From: a virus
Reading direction: 5' to 3' (one strand)
Length of the DNA stretch: 64,000 nt
Virus genome (UHGV): UHGV-2025275
In this document: one piece after another, positions 10,858 through 63,635 of the stretch
How positions within the stretch are numbered: the first letter of the stretch is position 1
Layout of the letters: every line of letters starts with the position of its first letter
The notes under the pieces: generated by a model
What the model saw: the letters and a program-made list of their open reading frames with translations, nothing else
Databases searched by the model: none
Told to the model about the DNA's origin: nothing
Made by a program: the position numbers and the translations under genes

Positions 10858-11451
10858 TTACGCTGCCTTTTTACGTGGTCTCTTCTTCCTGACAACATTG
10901 GCAGGATCATAACCACCCAGCTTTTTCATCACCGCCAGCGGTATCTTGCTGATGGTGTGCCCAGCTTCCTGACAGTAGCCACGGAAGATAAGCAACATGC
11001 TACCACCAGGGTTGATGTTCACCTCCACCAGCCCAAGTTCAACATCCGGCTCAACGAACGCCACGCGGCCGCCAGACAAGATGACGGTTTCGTTGGCGCA
11101 TTCAGCCGCACGCTCGTACCACTGCGTATCGAGGGATTGTGGTATCAACATGACTGTCGTCACTCCACGCGCCTGCTCGCGAATGGCTGCGTCTATCCAG
11201 GGGGTGATTTTGGAGTAGGGCGGGTTAAGGAACGCCACAGTGCCAGGTTCTCCCCAGCTGCACTTGAGCGCATCACGCTCAACACCGATAAAGTTCGGCA
11301 GGAGGGCATTATCTTTGTTGCAGGCGACGTCCACATCGAACTTTACGCCTATGTAACGTTGGATGGCGACAAACAACCACTGCGGTGTGCGCCAAAGGTC
11401 GCGAAGAGAGGCATCACGCTCTCGCTTTTTGATTTTTTCGGCTGCGATCAT
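10858..11451 (-). CDS. dam: DNA N6-adenine methyltransferase, phage Dam family
   Basis: LWRTPQWLF … AFLNPPYS motif characteristic of phage/T1-type Dam; ORF-track GTG start reads through the palindrome, first ATG at 11451 preferred. Confidence 0.75.
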   Translation of the reverse strand: MIAAEKIKKRERDASLRDLWRTPQWLFVAIQRYIGVKFDVDVACNKDNALLPNFIGVERDALKCSWGEPGTVAFLNPPYSKITPWIDAAIREQARGVTTVMLIPQSLDTQWYERAAECANETVILSGGRVAFVEPDVELGLVEVNINPGGSMLLIFRGYCQEAGHTISKIPLAVMKKLGGYDPANVVRKKRPRKKAA

Positions 11452-27603: not shown

Positions 27604-27689
27604 AATTCTTATTCAAATAGTTTTGTCCGGGGCAACGATAACTGACAAGGCGCACCGATGTTTGCAAATGCCTGTTTTACTTATACCCA

Positions 27690-27780
27690 TTATTCACAGG
27701 ACCGATCCAATAATTAGATCCCCAGAGAGATCCTACAGAAGATCAAAAGAGATCCCCGATCGTCTCCAGCCGTTGCGGTT
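27690..27780. repeat. GATC-rich ~90-bp module, copy 1 (6 GATC sites)
   Basis: direct repeat with 28070-28160; dense Dam sites. Confidence 0.7.
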
Positions 27781-27794
27781 ACTGGCCTGAGAGG

Positions 27795-27900
27795 GGTTTA
27801 CTATCCACTATGGGGAGGAAAGTAACCTCTGTAGAGAGCATAATAACCGCTATGAAGAGCAAAACAACCTCTCTGGAGAGTGGTCGGTATCCACTGTAGT
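27795..27900. repeat. iteron array upstream of rep (5 copies, 21-22 bp period)
   Basis: units like TATCCACTGTAGTGAGTAGGAT / CTATCCACTATGGGGAGGAAAG. Confidence 0.8.
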
Positions 27901-28069
27901 GAGTAGGATACATTGTCTTAACTGGATAACTCAGTGCCTGTTTTTCTACGTCAGGTGGCTGATATTCATAGAGATGTTGGAAGTTTTGCGTTCAGGCGTG
28001 TTTGTTTCGACCACACATTATCCCCAGAAGGGGAGTGATGGCTGGTTTTGCAATTACCTGATTTTTATA

Positions 28070-28160
28070 CACAGGCCCGATCCAGTAATTCAGATCCCAA
28101 AGAGAACCAAAGAGACCCACAAAGACCCAAAAAGATCCCCGCACCCCGCAAACCGTTGTG
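28070..28160. repeat. GATC-rich module, copy 2 (3 GATC sites)
   Basis: direct repeat of 27690-27780. Confidence 0.7.
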
Positions 28161-28184
28161 CCACATGGCCTTAGAGGTGATCGA

Positions 28185-28320
28185 TATCCACTATAGAGAG
28201 AAGATCAGCCACTATGAAGAGCAAGCCAACCACTGTAGAGAGTAGAAAAACCACTATAGGCGGTAGGATAACCGCTGTGATGAGTGCTACTATCCACTGT
28301 AATCAGCAAAGGCCACCAAA
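28185..28320. repeat. iteron array (6 copies, 21-22 bp period) immediately upstream of rep
   Basis: GATATCCACTATAGAGAGAAGA, CAACCACTGTAGAGAGTAGAAA etc. Confidence 0.8.
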
Positions 28321-28347
28321 GCGGTCGAATAAAAAGAGACACTTGGA

Positions 28348-29403
28348 ATGAGCGAAAACGGCAATAAAAACATAGCGATCGTTGAAGCATTCTCAGAAAC
28401 AGACAAAAAGACCGGTGAAGTTGTTACGTTAGTTCCTAACACCAACAACACAGTTCAGCCTGTTGCTCTGATGCGTCTTGGTCTCTTCGTTCCGACGCTG
28501 AAATCGACCGCCAGGGGCAGAAAGGGGCAAATGGTCTCTATGGACGCCTCTGCTGAACTCAAACAGCTGTCTCTGGCCAAAGCCGAAGGGTACGAGGACA
28601 TAAGGATCTCCGGCGTTCGTCTGGATATGGATAACGACTTCAAAACGTGGGTAGGCATCATCCACGCGTTCGCCAAGCACAAGGTTGTTGGCGACACCGT
28701 CACGTTACCGTTCGTCGAGTTCGTCAGGCTCTGTGGCATACCAACGGCCAGATCGTCCGCGAAGTTACGCAAGCGCCTGGACAGTTCTCTAACTCGTATT
28801 GCCACAAACACTATCTCATTCCGCAGTAAAGGCTCTGATGAGTATTACGTGACGCACCTTGTGCAGACAGCAAAGTACAGCACAAAGAACGACACGGTCT
28901 CGCTGCAGGCTGATCCTAAGATTTTCGAACTCTACCAGTTCGACAAAAAGGTTCTTCTGCAACTCCGGGCAATTAACGAACTCTCCAGAAAAGAATCCGC
29001 GCAGGCGCTCTACACCTTCATCGAAAGTTTGCCACCTGACCCGGTACCAATCTCGCTGGCTCGCTTACGCGCCAGACTTAACTTAACCAGCCGCACCATT
29101 ACCCAGAACGCGACAGTCAGGAAGGCGATGGAGCAGCTGCGTGAGATCGGCTATCTCGATTACACCGAAGTGAAGCGCGGCAGCTCGGTCTACTTCATCA
29201 TCCACTATAGGCGGCCGAAATTACGCCCAGCACTGCCACCAACTAAAGCTGCGCCTGAAGAACCAGAAGACATCTTGCCTGGTGATGATCAGGAGGACAT
29301 TATCGATGTTGTTCCTGAAGAAAAAGAGGGTGAGATGGTCATGTTGAGCAAGGAAGAACTGGCGATTCTCGAAGAGCTACGCAAGGCAAAAGCTCGCAAA
29401 TAA
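28348..29403 (+). CDS. repA: iteron-binding plasmid-type replication initiator RepA (RepFIB/P1-RepA-like class)
   Basis: flanked both sides by iteron arrays; N-terminal …[24 protein letters not shown]… recalled as RepFIB-like (from memory, unverified). Confidence 0.75.
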
Positions 29404-29404
29404 C

Positions 29405-29960
29405 CCAACCACTGTAGAGAGTAGAAAGGCTCACTATCCACTGTAGTGAGCCTTTTGTTTATCTGAAATCCGCTATCCACTGTAGTGAGTAACAACAACC
29501 GAAGAGTAACCACTGTAGGCAGTAGCGCTCAAATAACGAAATAAATGTTAGTGGTTACAAACCTAGATGAAACAAGGGCTGCGAGGTTAGTGGTCACTGG
29601 GTATCTTGTTAAATCCTCTCTATAGTGGTTATCGTTGTTCCCGTCGTTATTGGCTATCCACTGTGGAGAGCAGAATCGGTTGGCCGGATTTACTAACCAC
29701 TGTAGTGAGTAGATATCCGCTGAAAACAGTGAAGGTTTACTCTCTATAGTGGATACCCGCTGGAGAGCGCATTCCATCACTCTCTATAGTGGTTGTTTGC
29801 TGCGAATGAACGCCTGTTTACTCCCTACAGTGGATAGCGACGTCGATAATCTCCACTTTACTCACTACAGTGGATACCGGATGTCACGGCAGGCGTTTTA
29901 CTCACTACAGTGGTTATGGGCCGGATACGCACGCGGTGAGCTGGCTACTCACCGCAGTGG
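29405..29960. repeat. downstream iteron field (>=12 copies, both orientations)
   Basis: CCACTGTAG(A/T)GAG direct and CTC(A/T)CTA(T/C)AGTGG inverted copies. Confidence 0.8.
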
Positions 29961-29969
29961 TTAGTGTTA

Positions 29970-46440: not shown

Positions 46441-46827
46441 ATGGCTACCAACGAAACAGAGATCAAACAAGGTCGCTACGCAGCTTACATTGACTCGTTA
46501 ATCACAATCTCGCCTAAAAGTCAGGCTACCATTGCCAAAGAGGTTGGGTACAAGAACGCCAACAACCTCTCCCTCATCAAAAGCGGCAAAATCCCACTTC
46601 CAGTCGATAAGGTTCGAGCTTTAGCCGAAGCACTGGAGGCAGATCCGGTTCGACTGATGCTGATGGTTCTGGAAGAACGTCATCCTGAGCTGCTTGAGTT
46701 TTTTCGCGAAGAGGGCACTGCACCTCTCTCCGCTGATGAAAAACTCGTTCTAGAAGCGTTCCGTAACCGTTTTGACGGTCAACAGGGTGCGTCAGAAAAG
46801 GTGGTAGAAGCCATCAAGTCACTGTGA
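46441..46827 (+). CDS. putative HTH (XRE/Cro-like) transcriptional regulator
   Basis: SQATIAKEVGYKNANNLSLIKSGK helix-turn-helix-like; convergent with recombinase gene. Confidence 0.55.
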   Translation: MATNETEIKQGRYAAYIDSLITISPKSQATIAKEVGYKNANNLSLIKSGKIPLPVDKVRALAEALEADPVRLMLMVLEERHPELLEFFREEGTAPLSADEKLVLEAFRNRFDGQQGASEKVVEAIKSL

Positions 46828-47925
46828 GAAATTTACACGAATAAGCTCCGTGGCTAGACGATCTCCCTTGAATTTGTGGTCTATCTCGTCTAAGTCTGTT
46901 TGATTAACGATAGATGCGATGTACGTTGAGAAGTTATTCAAGGCGTCTCGCATCTCATCCATATAATCGTGGCGATCATAGACGCGATCTATCCCTTCAA
47001 GACTGTGGTTCATAATCTTACGGGCCACCTCCTGATTAATCCCCAGAGCAGGGAAATAACTACGCGCTGTACGTCTCAGATCGCGTGGGGTGAATGACTC
47101 AACCTCCATCAACTCAGGTCGTTCCAGTATCCTTCTCAGTGCCTGGGCAATGGCCACCTTAGACATTGGCGTATCCACGCCCTTCTTCTTATTCGAAGGA
47201 ACGAGCCACTGGCTGCCTTTCCCGTACTCAAACAACTCTTCTACGCATTGGCGCATCAATGGGCTTAACGGCAGCGCGTGCTGTCTGGCCGATTTGTTTC
47301 GCGTACCTTGATTCCATACATCACGTTGAAGGTTGAACTCATCCTTTCTGGCCCGGAGCACTTCATCGGGTCGTCTGGCGGCGACAAGACAGAGCCTGGC
47401 CGCCCACTTTGTGCCTTCGCACACATTGAAGTAATCCCAGACGTTCCAGAATACCCAGACCTCGGCGTCGGTCAGCTTACGTTCTCGCGGTACTGGCTTC
47501 GCGCCACCGGCAACTTTATTGAGCGACATATCATTCAACGGCGATGTATTAATCAGCCCCTGAAAAGCGCACCAGCTCAGGAACTGTTTCATTAGGGAGA
47601 ATACGCGTCTGCCCTGGACGATCTTACCTTCCAGTATCAGTGGGTTCACCAGTTGGTTGACCAAGACCCTACTTATATCACTTACCTTTACTTCAGAGAT
47701 ATGCGGCATTACATGTATCAAAACACAATGAACGGCTATTTCAGGTCGACGTCTCGTTATCAGTAAAGATAAGCGAGTGAATAACATGAAGGCGGAAGAA
47801 AACGACATGTCTCCGTCGAAATTGGCGGTCGACACTGCCGACAAACCGGAAGCGCGTTCGAGGTACTCGATGGCTTCCCGAGAGGTGTTTTCTGCTGCGC
47901 GTGCTTTATCAAAGGTGTTTTTCAT
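46819..47925 (-). CDS. tyrosine recombinase (integrase/resolvase family)
   Basis: …RDLRRTARSY… and HSLEGIDRVYDRHDY (R…HxxR…Y catalytic set); true start uncertain (internal ATG at 47709). Confidence 0.7.
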   Translation of the reverse strand: MKNTFDKARAAENTSREAIEYLERASGLSAVSTANFDGDMSFSSAFMLFTRLSLLITRRRPEIAVHCVLIHVMPHISEVKVSDISRVLVNQLVNPLILEGKIVQGRRVFSLMKQFLSWCAFQGLINTSPLNDMSLNKVAGGAKPVPRERKLTDAEVWVFWNVWDYFNVCEGTKWAARLCLVAARRPDEVLRARKDEFNLQRDVWNQGTRNKSARQHALPLSPLMRQCVEELFEYGKGSQWLVPSNKKKGVDTPMSKVAIAQALRRILERPELMEVESFTPRDLRRTARSYFPALGINQEVARKIMNHSLEGIDRVYDRHDYMDEMRDALNNFSTYIASIVNQTDLDEIDHKFKGDRLATELIRVNFSQ

Positions 47926-48097: not shown

Positions 48098-48508
48098 TCA
48101 CGGATTAGTGAGAGCTTGAAATGCGGCGGCGTATGCAGCGATATCGGCCATGATTTTTGGATCTTTCGCATACTGATGTGCATTGCCCGGGAAGATTGCT
48201 AATAGACTATACACATCTTGGAAATGTGCATGTTGACTGTAAACGAGTGCGCGGTCGCTTGTGCAATTGAATCTGTTGCGGCTGCTGGTTCGTTCTTGCT
48301 TCGTGAACAAGAGATGAACGTGATAAACGCGGGAGGACACGATAGCACCCGGAGCCGTATACGGGCCATCTTTGCCTAATACGGCTGGGCACATGCCTTG
48401 TTTAAGCGACGTGAAATCGTCGAGTAACGTGATCTTTAAGTCAGGCTTTATATCGAAGGTCGGCTGTAAAAATTGGGCGTAACTATCACTGTTCCATGTG
48501 ACCTTCAT
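48098..48508 (-). CDS. hypothetical protein (136 aa), possible YafO-like toxin
   Basis: size and YHVHLL motif vaguely reminiscent of YafO (weak). Confidence 0.45.
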   Translation of the reverse strand: MKVTWNSDSYAQFLQPTFDIKPDLKITLLDDFTSLKQGMCPAVLGKDGPYTAPGAIVSSRVYHVHLLFTKQERTSSRNRFNCTSDRALVYSQHAHFQDVYSLLAIFPGNAHQYAKDPKIMADIAAYAAAFQALTNP

Positions 48509-61871: not shown

Positions 61872-63635
61872 TTAATCAATATCTATCTTTAACAATCTTT
61901 CAACTCTTATTTTATTCAATTGCGAAGTTCTTGCCACTCTTTTAATTGCAGCTATTGCTTTATCAGTTATTTGAGTCTGGCCAGGTATAGGATCAACGTG
62001 GTCGTCAAATTTAAGAAGGCCATGCCTAATCTTATCTAAAACATCTTCGTTACAGGTAACAATCCAGTTGTAATAATCATCTTCACTGTATGCATTTAAA
62101 GCATCAATATGTAATGAAGAGTAATTATTACTGCTCGATAACCGGCCAAGCAACTCATCTAAATCATATTCGGCCTTTCTTATTTGATTTAATTTATTAT
62201 TAATCAATTCATATAAGCCTTTATGCTCAATGGTGCTGTTCATCAATAAATTATATTCTTTATTAAGTGAACCTCTACTAATAAGATCATCAACATATTG
62301 AGTAATATAACTATCGCAGTTAACGCCTAACTCCTCTAGAATAATAAAAATCGAGGAAACCTTGCTAAGAGGTATTCTCGACCTATACTCCTCTATTGCT
62401 CCTTTCAATGCATCAACAAAATCATCTTGGTTTGTATTGAAAGAATCTCTAAAAACACTCCATATTTCATCTAACTTTCTATTTATCGCTATATCTTCAT
62501 AATCTTTATTTTTAGCCTTCACCGCACTTTCAAAACTGAAGTTGGAAGGCAAATATCCATGCTTAAAGTAATAATCAATCCCGTAATCAAATAAATTATC
62601 AGAATTTGTAAATGACATATCTAACTGCTCTATGAATTTTTCAGTGGCTGACATTTCGTCATCATTAGTATGATAACTATCAGCCATTGCTCTGGGTTGT
62701 ATTTTTTTGAAAAATTCATCATAGGGCAACTCATCAGCCCATGAGTAAAATACATATGCAAAAAGAACAACTCTGAAAGTAAAATCTTTCCGCACTTCCC
62801 TGCACGCTGTTGTGAATTCAGACTCATATGCGTAAAGAGTCTTTTTTATTTTATTCAATATTCTAATATTTTTTAAATTTAAAGCATCTGCCGCACTTTT
62901 TATAAATTCAAAATTCGGATCGTTATGTGGAAATATTTTTCTGACATTATCAATGACGTCAGGTTTATACATAATGTCACGATCGACAATTTTTTCTCGA
63001 TATTCTATAAATTGTCTTTCTTCATCATTCTTAGTTAAGTTATTTTCATTGTAAATCAATATTATCTTACATGCTTTTGATCTTGCAAGGTCATCAACTA
63101 ACCCCATGAAGTCTTTTATCTCTAAAGAGCTACCTTTTCTCTCAAGATCGTCAAAACAAATTAAATATTTACTTACATAATTATAACCATCAAAAATTGT
63201 AAATTCGGAGGATTTAAGGCCAAACCCGCTTATCCCTATGCTAAAGTTATTAAAGATCGTTTTACTTACTTTGTTATACCTTACGCACTTATATACTCCC
63301 GAGAAAAACCTCTCCATCATTTGTTGTTTTTTCTCTAGTAAATCCTCTCTATAAAGTTTTTGATTAAGCGGTATAGTGGAAGGGAATAGTTTTTTCTTAA
63401 TTTCTTCAATAGAATTAAGACCAAATAGAGAAACATATGAATATGCAATCTGATCAATTTCTCTTTTATTTCTTTTACCTTCGTAGTAACGGTTCCAAAA
63501 ATGTGTTTTCCCTACTCCCCATTCACCTTTAATTACTGCAACCCTGTCATCAGAAGCCAAAAATTCATCTAAAATTTTTGTTATGGACATAATTAATGCT
63601 CCTAAGAAAAAGGCGCCTAACGCGCCTTCAATCAA
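61872..63635 (-). CDS. KAP-family P-loop NTPase (587 aa), AT-rich
   Basis: Walker A KGEWGVGKTHFW (GxWGxGKT hallmark of KAP NTPases); ~28% GC vs ~50% backbone. Confidence 0.6.
   Translation of the reverse strand: MIEGALGAFFLGALIMSITKILDEFLASDDRVAVIKGEWGVGKTHFWNRYYEGKRNKREIDQIAYSYVSLFGLNSIEEIKKKLFPSTIPLNQKLYREDLLEKKQQMMERFFSGVYKCVRYNKVSKTIFNNFSIGISGFGLKSSEFTIFDGYNYVSKYLICFDDLERKGSSLEIKDFMGLVDDLARSKACKIILIYNENNLTKNDEERQFIEYREKIVDRDIMYKPDVIDNVRKIFPHNDPNFEFIKSAADALNLKNIRILNKIKKTLYAYESEFTTACREVRKDFTFRVVLFAYVFYSWADELPYDEFFKKIQPRAMADSYHTNDDEMSATEKFIEQLDMSFTNSDNLFDYGIDYYFKHGYLPSNFSFESAVKAKNKDYEDIAINRKLDEIWSVFRDSFNTNQDDFVDALKGAIEEYRSRIPLSKVSSIFIILEELGVNCDSYITQYVDDLISRGSLNKEYNLLMNSTIEHKGLYELINNKLNQIRKAEYDLDELLGRLSSSNNYSSLHIDALNAYSEDDYYNWIVTCNEDVLDKIRHGLLKFDDHVDPIPGQTQITDKAIAAIKRVARTSQLNKIRVERLLKIDID

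Follow-up and report, generated by a model that had tools for sequence, protein, structure and literature searches.

The closest described relatives of the replicon reported here are those of the plasmid prophage P1 and of the RepFIB plasmids. In the P1 record, the origin oriR begins with a DnaA-binding site, followed by five Dam sites and five RepA-binding repeats (iterons) spaced 21 bp apart (incC); the promoter PrepA lies between the last incC iterons and is followed by repA and by nine further iterons (incA) that run from the repA stop codon. RepFIB replicons also carry repeats on both sides of rep, the upstream repeats BCDD'D'' forming the origin and the downstream repeats E-K the control block (PMC11983097). 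The downstream iterons of FIB replicons act in control and incompatibility through handcuffing, and in experiments the downstream block alone displaced the replicon whereas the upstream block did not (PMC11983097). Among phages, Salmonella phage SSU5 is a recognised phage-plasmid whose supercommunity is the main group of IncFIB-typed phage-plasmids (PMC7969092), and its replication gene is contained in typing tools (bioRxiv 10.1101/2025.09.12.675607). Here we describe the sequence anatomy, homology, database identity and conservation of a 2.4-kb locus around a repA gene (positions 27,604 to 29,960) in a 64,000-nucleotide stretch of the virus genome UHGV-2025275, hereafter the window. The locus is very probably the theta-type, iteron-controlled maintenance replicon of a phage-plasmid of the SSU5/pHCM2/pMT1 type, with an initiator of the RepFIB/P1 RepA family and a tandemly duplicated origin.

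The 2.4-kb locus is 100% identical to a segment of p3_SCLZS62, a circular, non-mobilizable 116-kb plasmid of Raoultella planticola that is typed as IncFIB in PLSDB and, by PlasmidFinder type, as IncFIB(pHCM2) by its authors (PMC8907287). Identity to SSU5 is 96.8%, with the flanking genes shared, and identity to Escherichia phage Cyrano is 83%. The locus is contained in 338 PLSDB plasmid records, 63 of them from Yersinia, and many of these are closed circles of 106-116 kb; a Y. pestis contig encodes a RepA that is 98% identical and has both of the origin modules described below. Judged by these matches, the locus belongs to the already catalogued IncFIB(pHCM2)/pMT1/SSU5-type replicon, so that the initial annotation, which had read it as a plasmid-type iteron replicon, was right but described something known. 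Next to the replicon, the near-identical reference plasmid is annotated with a DnaB-like helicase, a primase, a ligase and DNA polymerase III alpha, and further with a recombinase, exonucleases, nrdAB and thymidylate synthase, which bears out the placement of the replicon within a phage replication cluster. Genes for the terminase, portal, major capsid, tape-measure and tail proteins of a phage are likewise present on p3_SCLZS62; such genes were not located within the 64-kb window.

The proposal that the element is a plasmid prophage is supported by the number of plasmid records that contain the locus, by its identical copy on a 116-kb circle with structural genes and by its closeness to SSU5. 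A tyrosine recombinase gene of the Phage_integrase family (46819-47925, minus strand) brings up the alternative that the replicon is a silent remnant and that the element persists by integrating with the help of this enzyme. We give this alternative almost no credence: the locus is present in hundreds of plasmid records, many of them closed circles, it has an intact repA and conserved iterons, and P1 also has a tyrosine recombinase, Cre, which serves in dimer resolution (PMC7969092). By analogy, the recombinase of the window could be a dimer-resolution enzyme like Cre and not an integrase. Because the window encodes a tyrosine recombinase, the claim that the element does not integrate rests on the many circular plasmid records and not on gene content. 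The recombinase gene adjoins a small regulator-like open reading frame (ORF) on the same strand (48098-48508), with a YafO-family toxin nearby.

repA is the sole long plus-strand ORF in the region and has non-coding DNA on both sides. Its product has the WH1 and WH2 domains of Rep3 initiators, with a Pfam Rep3_N score of 43.6 bits (E 4.9e-11; cut-off 22.4) and a borderline Rep3_C score that is given below. A BLAST comparison had been proposed as a check of the RepFIB/P1 assignment, and RepA passed it: it shares 64% of residues over 300 aa with RepA from the RepFIB replicon of F (E 4e-143) and 49% over 267 aa with P1 RepA (E 1e-92). A RepA tail of about 58 residues (about 293-351; 29224-29400) runs past the end of P1 RepA; it is rich in proline and acidic residues and closes with a basic, helix-like segment.

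The iteron arrays around repA stand far above chance. With up to two mismatches, the 13-mer CCACTRTAGNGAG given by the initial annotation has 25 matches in the 64-kb window, 22 of which fall in 27805-29960; shuffled sequences gave 5.2 +/- 2.1 matches, and none of 100 shuffles reached 25. Scanning with a position-weight matrix made from the clear iteron copies resolved three arrays (Table 1). A fuller iteron consensus is close to (T/A)A(T/A)CCACT(G/A)TAGnGAGTA. The copies of the distal array scored 25.4, 26.4, 16.0, 14.5 and 30.9, and all 11 upstream iterons lie on the plus strand. Downstream of repA the orientations are, in order, + + + + - + + - - - - - -. Earlier counts of 5 + 6 upstream and at least 12 downstream copies, in both orientations, were therefore correct or slightly conservative, the downstream number being 13. 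The figure of 21-22 bp that had been given for the iterons fits the spacing of the upstream arrays (21-23 bp) but not that of the downstream block, which is 29-47 bp. In position and content the downstream block appears to be the counterpart of P1 incA and of RepFIB repeats E-K.

Table 1. Features of the replicon locus and of its flanks; positions refer to the window.
Feature	Position	Strand	Details and basis
ASCH-like ORF, 214 aa	26959-27603	-	Replicon-flanking
Distal tandem DnaA boxes	27681-27698	+	TTATACCCA (one mismatch) and TTATTCACA; DnaA-box scan, consensus TTATNCACA
Distal heptamer-like repeats	27704-27761		Six GATC; align with P1 Dam sites 1-5
Distal G+C-rich spacer	27762-27798		Heptamers to iterons; aligns with the G+C-rich stretch of P1 oriR
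Distal iteron array	27799-27907	+	5 copies, spacings 21, 21, 21, 23 bp; position-weight scan; repeat family D1
Inter-module spacer	27908-28064		Variable in sequence and length among relatives (12 orthologous upstream regions aligned)
Weak DnaA-box-like site	27919-27927	reverse	CTGGATAAC; inside the inter-module spacer
Proximal single DnaA box	28065-28073	+	TTATACACA; DnaA-box scan
Proximal heptamer region	28079-28137		GATC at 28079, 28093, 28134; three decayed sites GAAC, GACC, GACC
Proximal iteron array	28182-28310	+	Directly 5' of repA; 6 copies, spacings 21, 21, 21, 21, 22 bp; repeat family D1
Candidate repA promoter, extended -10 (TGcTACTAT)	28285-28293	+	Between the last two proximal iterons; conservation and P1 PrepA position
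repA, putative iteron-binding initiator, 351 aa	28348-29403	+	RepFIB/P1 RepA family; Rep3 domains, homology, annotation in identical records
Downstream iteron block	29403-29966	mixed	13 strong copies; position-weight scan; begins at the repA stop codon
Terminator-like hairpin	29424-29456	+	14-pair stem, then T-run; just 3' of the repA stop
Two iteron half-sites	29547-29558 and 29586-29597		Within the downstream block
Cra-like ORF, 71 aa	29970-30185	-	Replicon-flanking
ORF, 111 aa	30182-30517	-	Replicon-flanking

Two further iteron matches were noted. A full iteron (29432-29454) sits inside the terminator-like hairpin, and RepA binding there could hinder hairpin formation, or vice versa. The iteron-like 13-mer CCACTATAGGCGG within repA (29202-29214), which is the same as that at 28251-28263, derives from conserved IHYRR codons and was set aside as probably incidental, because it is missing in many relatives with identical amino acids at this place.

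Upstream of repA there are two modules, and the counts of 6 and 3 GATC sites that had been given for them were confirmed. Each can be aligned base by base with P1 oriR over the DnaA boxes, the GATC heptamers and the G+C-rich spacer; only the iterons differ. The distal DnaA boxes fall on the DnaA-binding site that is annotated in P1 oriR, and the stretch with six GATC that follows them is the densest in GATC of any 100-bp stretch in the whole window (the runner-up has 3). On this alignment, the six-GATC stretch would correspond to the core of P1 oriR that is methylated by Dam. The proximal module, aligned with the distal module and with P1, lacks the second box of the tandem DnaA pair. Taken as a whole, the succession of core, phased iterons, repA and a second iteron block from the stop codon matches the annotated P1 replicon, in agreement with the RepFIB/P1 architecture that the initial annotation had put forward. 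We considered the inter-module spacer as a possible relic of the 5' end of repA and rejected this (z about 1). The distal core (27690-27786) also has nucleotide matches of 77-81% in more than 3000 PLSDB plasmids, most of which come from Klebsiella and Escherichia and many of which are conjugative; it is therefore a very widely shared module of RepFIB-type replicons.

Over the last two proximal iterons, the 12 orthologous upstream regions share a near-invariant block, GTGAGTG(C/T)TA(G/C)TATCCACTGTA, which holds the motif TGnTAnTAT. The -10 element within it has the position of the annotated -10 of P1 PrepA, between the last two incC iterons, and the matching place in the distal array shows no such conservation among the 12 regions. 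We therefore regard the element as a candidate for the repA promoter.

By homology with P1 oriR and RepFIB, we infer how binding, opening, methylation and control would proceed at this locus. RepA monomers would bind the phased upstream iterons and, together with host DnaA at the adjoining DnaA boxes, would open the GATC-heptamer core. After initiation, the hemimethylated GATC cluster would probably be sequestered by host SeqA. By occupying the iterons that overlie the repA promoter, RepA would repress its own gene, and the downstream iterons and the extra upstream array would titrate RepA and pair with the origin iterons (handcuffing), keeping the copy number low.

Some results weigh against the identification of the locus as a replicon of this kind. 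The C-terminal domain match of RepA, Rep3_C, scored 21.0 bits and is marginally below its cut-off of 21.1; RepA had no match in a phmmer search of the PDB sequences or in an NCBIfam scan; and a simple consensus promoter scan gave no plus-strand promoter in the proximal array. The accessible literature, a scope that leaves out the primary papers on pMT1 and pHCM2, held no experiment on this replicon.

The initial annotation had also assigned a Dam methyltransferase to the element and suggested that initiation might be gated by methylation. The gene is real and its product falls in the named family (PF05869 Dam, E 4e-37; TIGR01712, 111.8 bits against a cut-off of 97), with the correction that it lies on the minus strand (10858-11451). 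Methylation gating as such is plausible, solely by homology to the GATC heptamers of P1 oriR, and nothing ties the element's own methyltransferase to it. That initiation is gated specifically by this enzyme seems highly improbable to us. An N6-adenine methyltransferase encoded 17 kb away and an origin core that is the densest GATC cluster of the window would suit such a role, but the methyltransferase gene is unlinked to the replicon, and enterobacterial hosts already possess Dam, which would suffice. Moreover, the same GATC-rich two-module origin is found on Erwinia and Pantoea contigs of 450-800 kb, which are not of phage size and were compared for their origin, not for methyltransferase content. 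One study reportedly dealt with adenine methylation in the REPI replicon of pColV-K30, REPI being of the RepFIB type.

The aspect of the locus that is less documented, beyond its place in the catalogue, is the duplication of the origin. To follow it across relatives, 80 genomic loci encoding RepA relatives were fetched and compared with phage and plasmid loci. A single module is present in P1, in SJ46 (judged by its 299-bp upstream gap), in the RepFIB of F, in PhiR41_1 (pLF82-type) and in pJN2-26 (pKPHS1-type), and also in a Pantoea clade with 68% RepA identity. Two modules were found in replicons whose RepA is about 66-99% identical to that of the window, from Kluyvera, Yersinia, Buttiauxella, Rahnella, Pantoea, Erwinia, Cedecea and Morganella. 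Across these orthologues the distal cores have 5-6 GATC in about 50 bp together with DnaA boxes, and the proximal cores retain GATC 1, 2 and 5, positions 3 and 4 being GAAC, GACC or GTTC in most lineages. When the 130-nt cores were placed in a neighbour-joining tree, the majority of the proximal ones fell into one cluster, and the distal cores grouped with the single-copy cores of P1, pKPHS1-type and pLF82-type replicons. Mean core identities were 0.69 among distal cores, 0.54 among proximal cores, 0.66 between distal and single cores and 0.56 between proximal and single cores. The tree and the mean identities fit one old duplication followed by asymmetric divergence. Of the 338 plasmids with the replicon, 335 have kept 80% or more of the 744 bp that make up the whole upstream region. 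These comparisons indicate that the tandem duplication of the origin is ancient and that orthologous replicons in at least eight genera have kept it. The accessible literature, which again does not extend to the original papers on pMT1 and pHCM2, gave no description of such an arrangement.

Three of the compared loci (L019, L020 and L029), on Erwinia and Pantoea contigs of 459-797 kb, the size of a megaplasmid or chromid, have the same RepA clade and the two-module origin; the replicon type therefore extends beyond phage-plasmids. A role for one of the modules in the lytic cycle was considered and rejected in view of this same two-module layout on contigs of 450-800 kb.

The features of the two copies suggest different uses for them. 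The distal copy (27681-27907), with its full DnaA-box pair and six GATC, may be the working origin. The proximal copy (28065-28310) has one DnaA box, has lost GATC 3 and 4 and carries the conserved promoter-like element, and on these grounds it may now serve mainly as the promoter and operator of repA and as an extra RepA-binding array. In P1 and in the RepFIB of F, in contrast, a single iteron array does both the origin and the operator jobs. We tentatively propose, as a possibility somewhat short of an even chance, that duplicated copies of a P1-type oriR divided these functions, the distal copy remaining a complete DnaA- and Dam/SeqA-dependent origin and the proximal copy turning into the repA promoter/operator with an extra titrating, handcuffing array. 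Two observations sit uneasily with this division. Across genera, a DnaA box and GATC 1, 2 and 5 survive in the proximal core, which may thus still act in origin firing or sequestration and not as an operator alone. Between the window and Cyrano, the proximal core is 93% conserved and the distal core 82%, which is a misfit with a simple picture of a decaying proximal copy.

The retention of these proximal elements across genera also speaks for a different reading, in which both upstream modules are independent functional origins, either redundant or each serving particular hosts or conditions of growth. The full set of parts (DnaA box, GATC heptamers, G+C-rich spacer and 5-6 phased iterons) is present in the one module as in the other, and nearly all the related plasmids (335 of 338, as above) retain both. 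We consider this reading doubtful, though still a serious contender. The proximal cores consistently lack GATC 3 and 4, and usually 6, as well as one of the tandem DnaA boxes, and five loci (L011, L022, L024, L057 and L060) retain the proximal iterons but have fewer than 3 proximal GATC. Brendler, Abeles and Austin are said to have found in 1991 (J Bacteriol 173:3935) that a single-base change in any P1 heptamer can inactivate oriR, and such sensitivity would count against a proximal origin with altered heptamers.

A further reading takes the proximal core for a leftover of the duplication that decays neutrally: its iterons and promoter alone would matter, and the residual GATC sites and DnaA box would do nothing. 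Proximal cores are less alike than distal ones, as their mean identities show, and in some lineages nearly all proximal GATC are gone. Yet most proximal cores still have the DnaA box and GATC 1, 2 and 5, in replicons with a RepA identity of only about 70%, and the conservation of the proximal core against Cyrano (93%) exceeds that of the whole locus (about 83%). We regard decay without function as unlikely, and we keep the division of functions between the two copies as our working proposal.

Outside the replicon, the first 25 kb of the window match the same plasmid family. The best plasmid match covers only 83% of these 25 kb, and no single record matches the window fully. A KAP-family P-loop NTPase of 587 aa (61872-63635, minus strand) stands where the closest reference plasmid carries other genes. 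Given the NTPase and the 83% coverage, the window is a mosaic variant that carries accessory genes of its own, which may serve in defence.

The replicon sets the host range, copy number and incompatibility of phage-plasmids of the SSU5/pHCM2/pMT1 type, which include the murine-toxin plasmid of Y. pestis and carriers of resistance genes, and it is already part of typing schemes. A practical use could lie in the design of curing cassettes, the downstream iterons being the effective incompatibility determinant in FIB replicons (PMC11983097). The ancient duplicated origin merits a modest follow-up; if confirmed, it would be a natural case in which origin and auto-repression separated after duplication.

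Compared with P1, the locus has the same order of DnaA boxes, GATC heptamers, G+C-rich spacer, promoter-bearing 21-bp iterons, repA and a second block of mixed orientation that starts at the repA stop codon, and both elements are plasmid prophages. The differences lie in the iteron sequence (TATCCACTGTAGnGAGTA in the window, GATGTGTGCTGGAGGGAAA in P1), in the two tandem modules with 5 + 6 iterons where P1 has one with 5, and in the 13 downstream iterons against 9. The RepA of the window is longer by about 27 residues at its N terminus and by about 58 at its C terminus. P1 has parAB after its replicon and the window does not, this being the sole P1-specific feature found missing: no parA-parB-parS set of the P1 type follows the incA-like block directly, and the next gene is the Cra-like ORF on the opposite strand. 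A tblastn search with P1 ParA gave no match in the window (best E 0.98), and the Walker-A-type ParA motif KGGxxK[ST] is also absent from it. The phage backbones are unrelated, the closest reference having the genes of a long-tailed phage (tape measure) and P1 being classified in Punavirus.

The closest characterised initiator is that of the RepFIB replicons of F, P307 and pO157 (64% identity). Upstream, the copy in F has a DnaA box, 5 GATC and 5 iterons, and thus a single origin core; its iterons are of the ATAAGCTGT type, unlike those of the window, and its hosts are conjugative F-type plasmids and not phages. The phage SJ1 record could not be used for the RepFIB layout, as its genes are annotated without intergenic DNA. 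The IncFIB(pHCM2) replicon of pHCM2, of Y. pestis pMT1/pFra and of SSU5 is the same replicon, with 96-100% identity over the whole locus including both modules. Apart from small indels in the 3' end of repA and in the downstream block, nothing of substance sets them apart; RepA has 354 aa in SSU5 and in the Y. pestis copy, and the match to SSU5 extends over 52 bp more.

The pKPHS1-type and pLF82-type replicons of Klebsiella phage pJN2-26 and Escherichia phage PhiR41_1 occupy the same backbone slot and share the initiator family and the type of origin core. Their RepA is 49-50% identical to that of the window, their iterons are of the CCGCTGACAG type, and they have a single module with 6 GATC. 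The proteins that flank the replicon are nevertheless 70-93% identical in PhiR41_1 and pJN2-26 (loci L005 and L006). Such similar flanks around a divergent RepA, different iterons and a single module point to the exchange of the replicon as a cassette, and the presence of three different RepFIB-type cassettes in one backbone slot documents replicon swapping among phage-plasmids.

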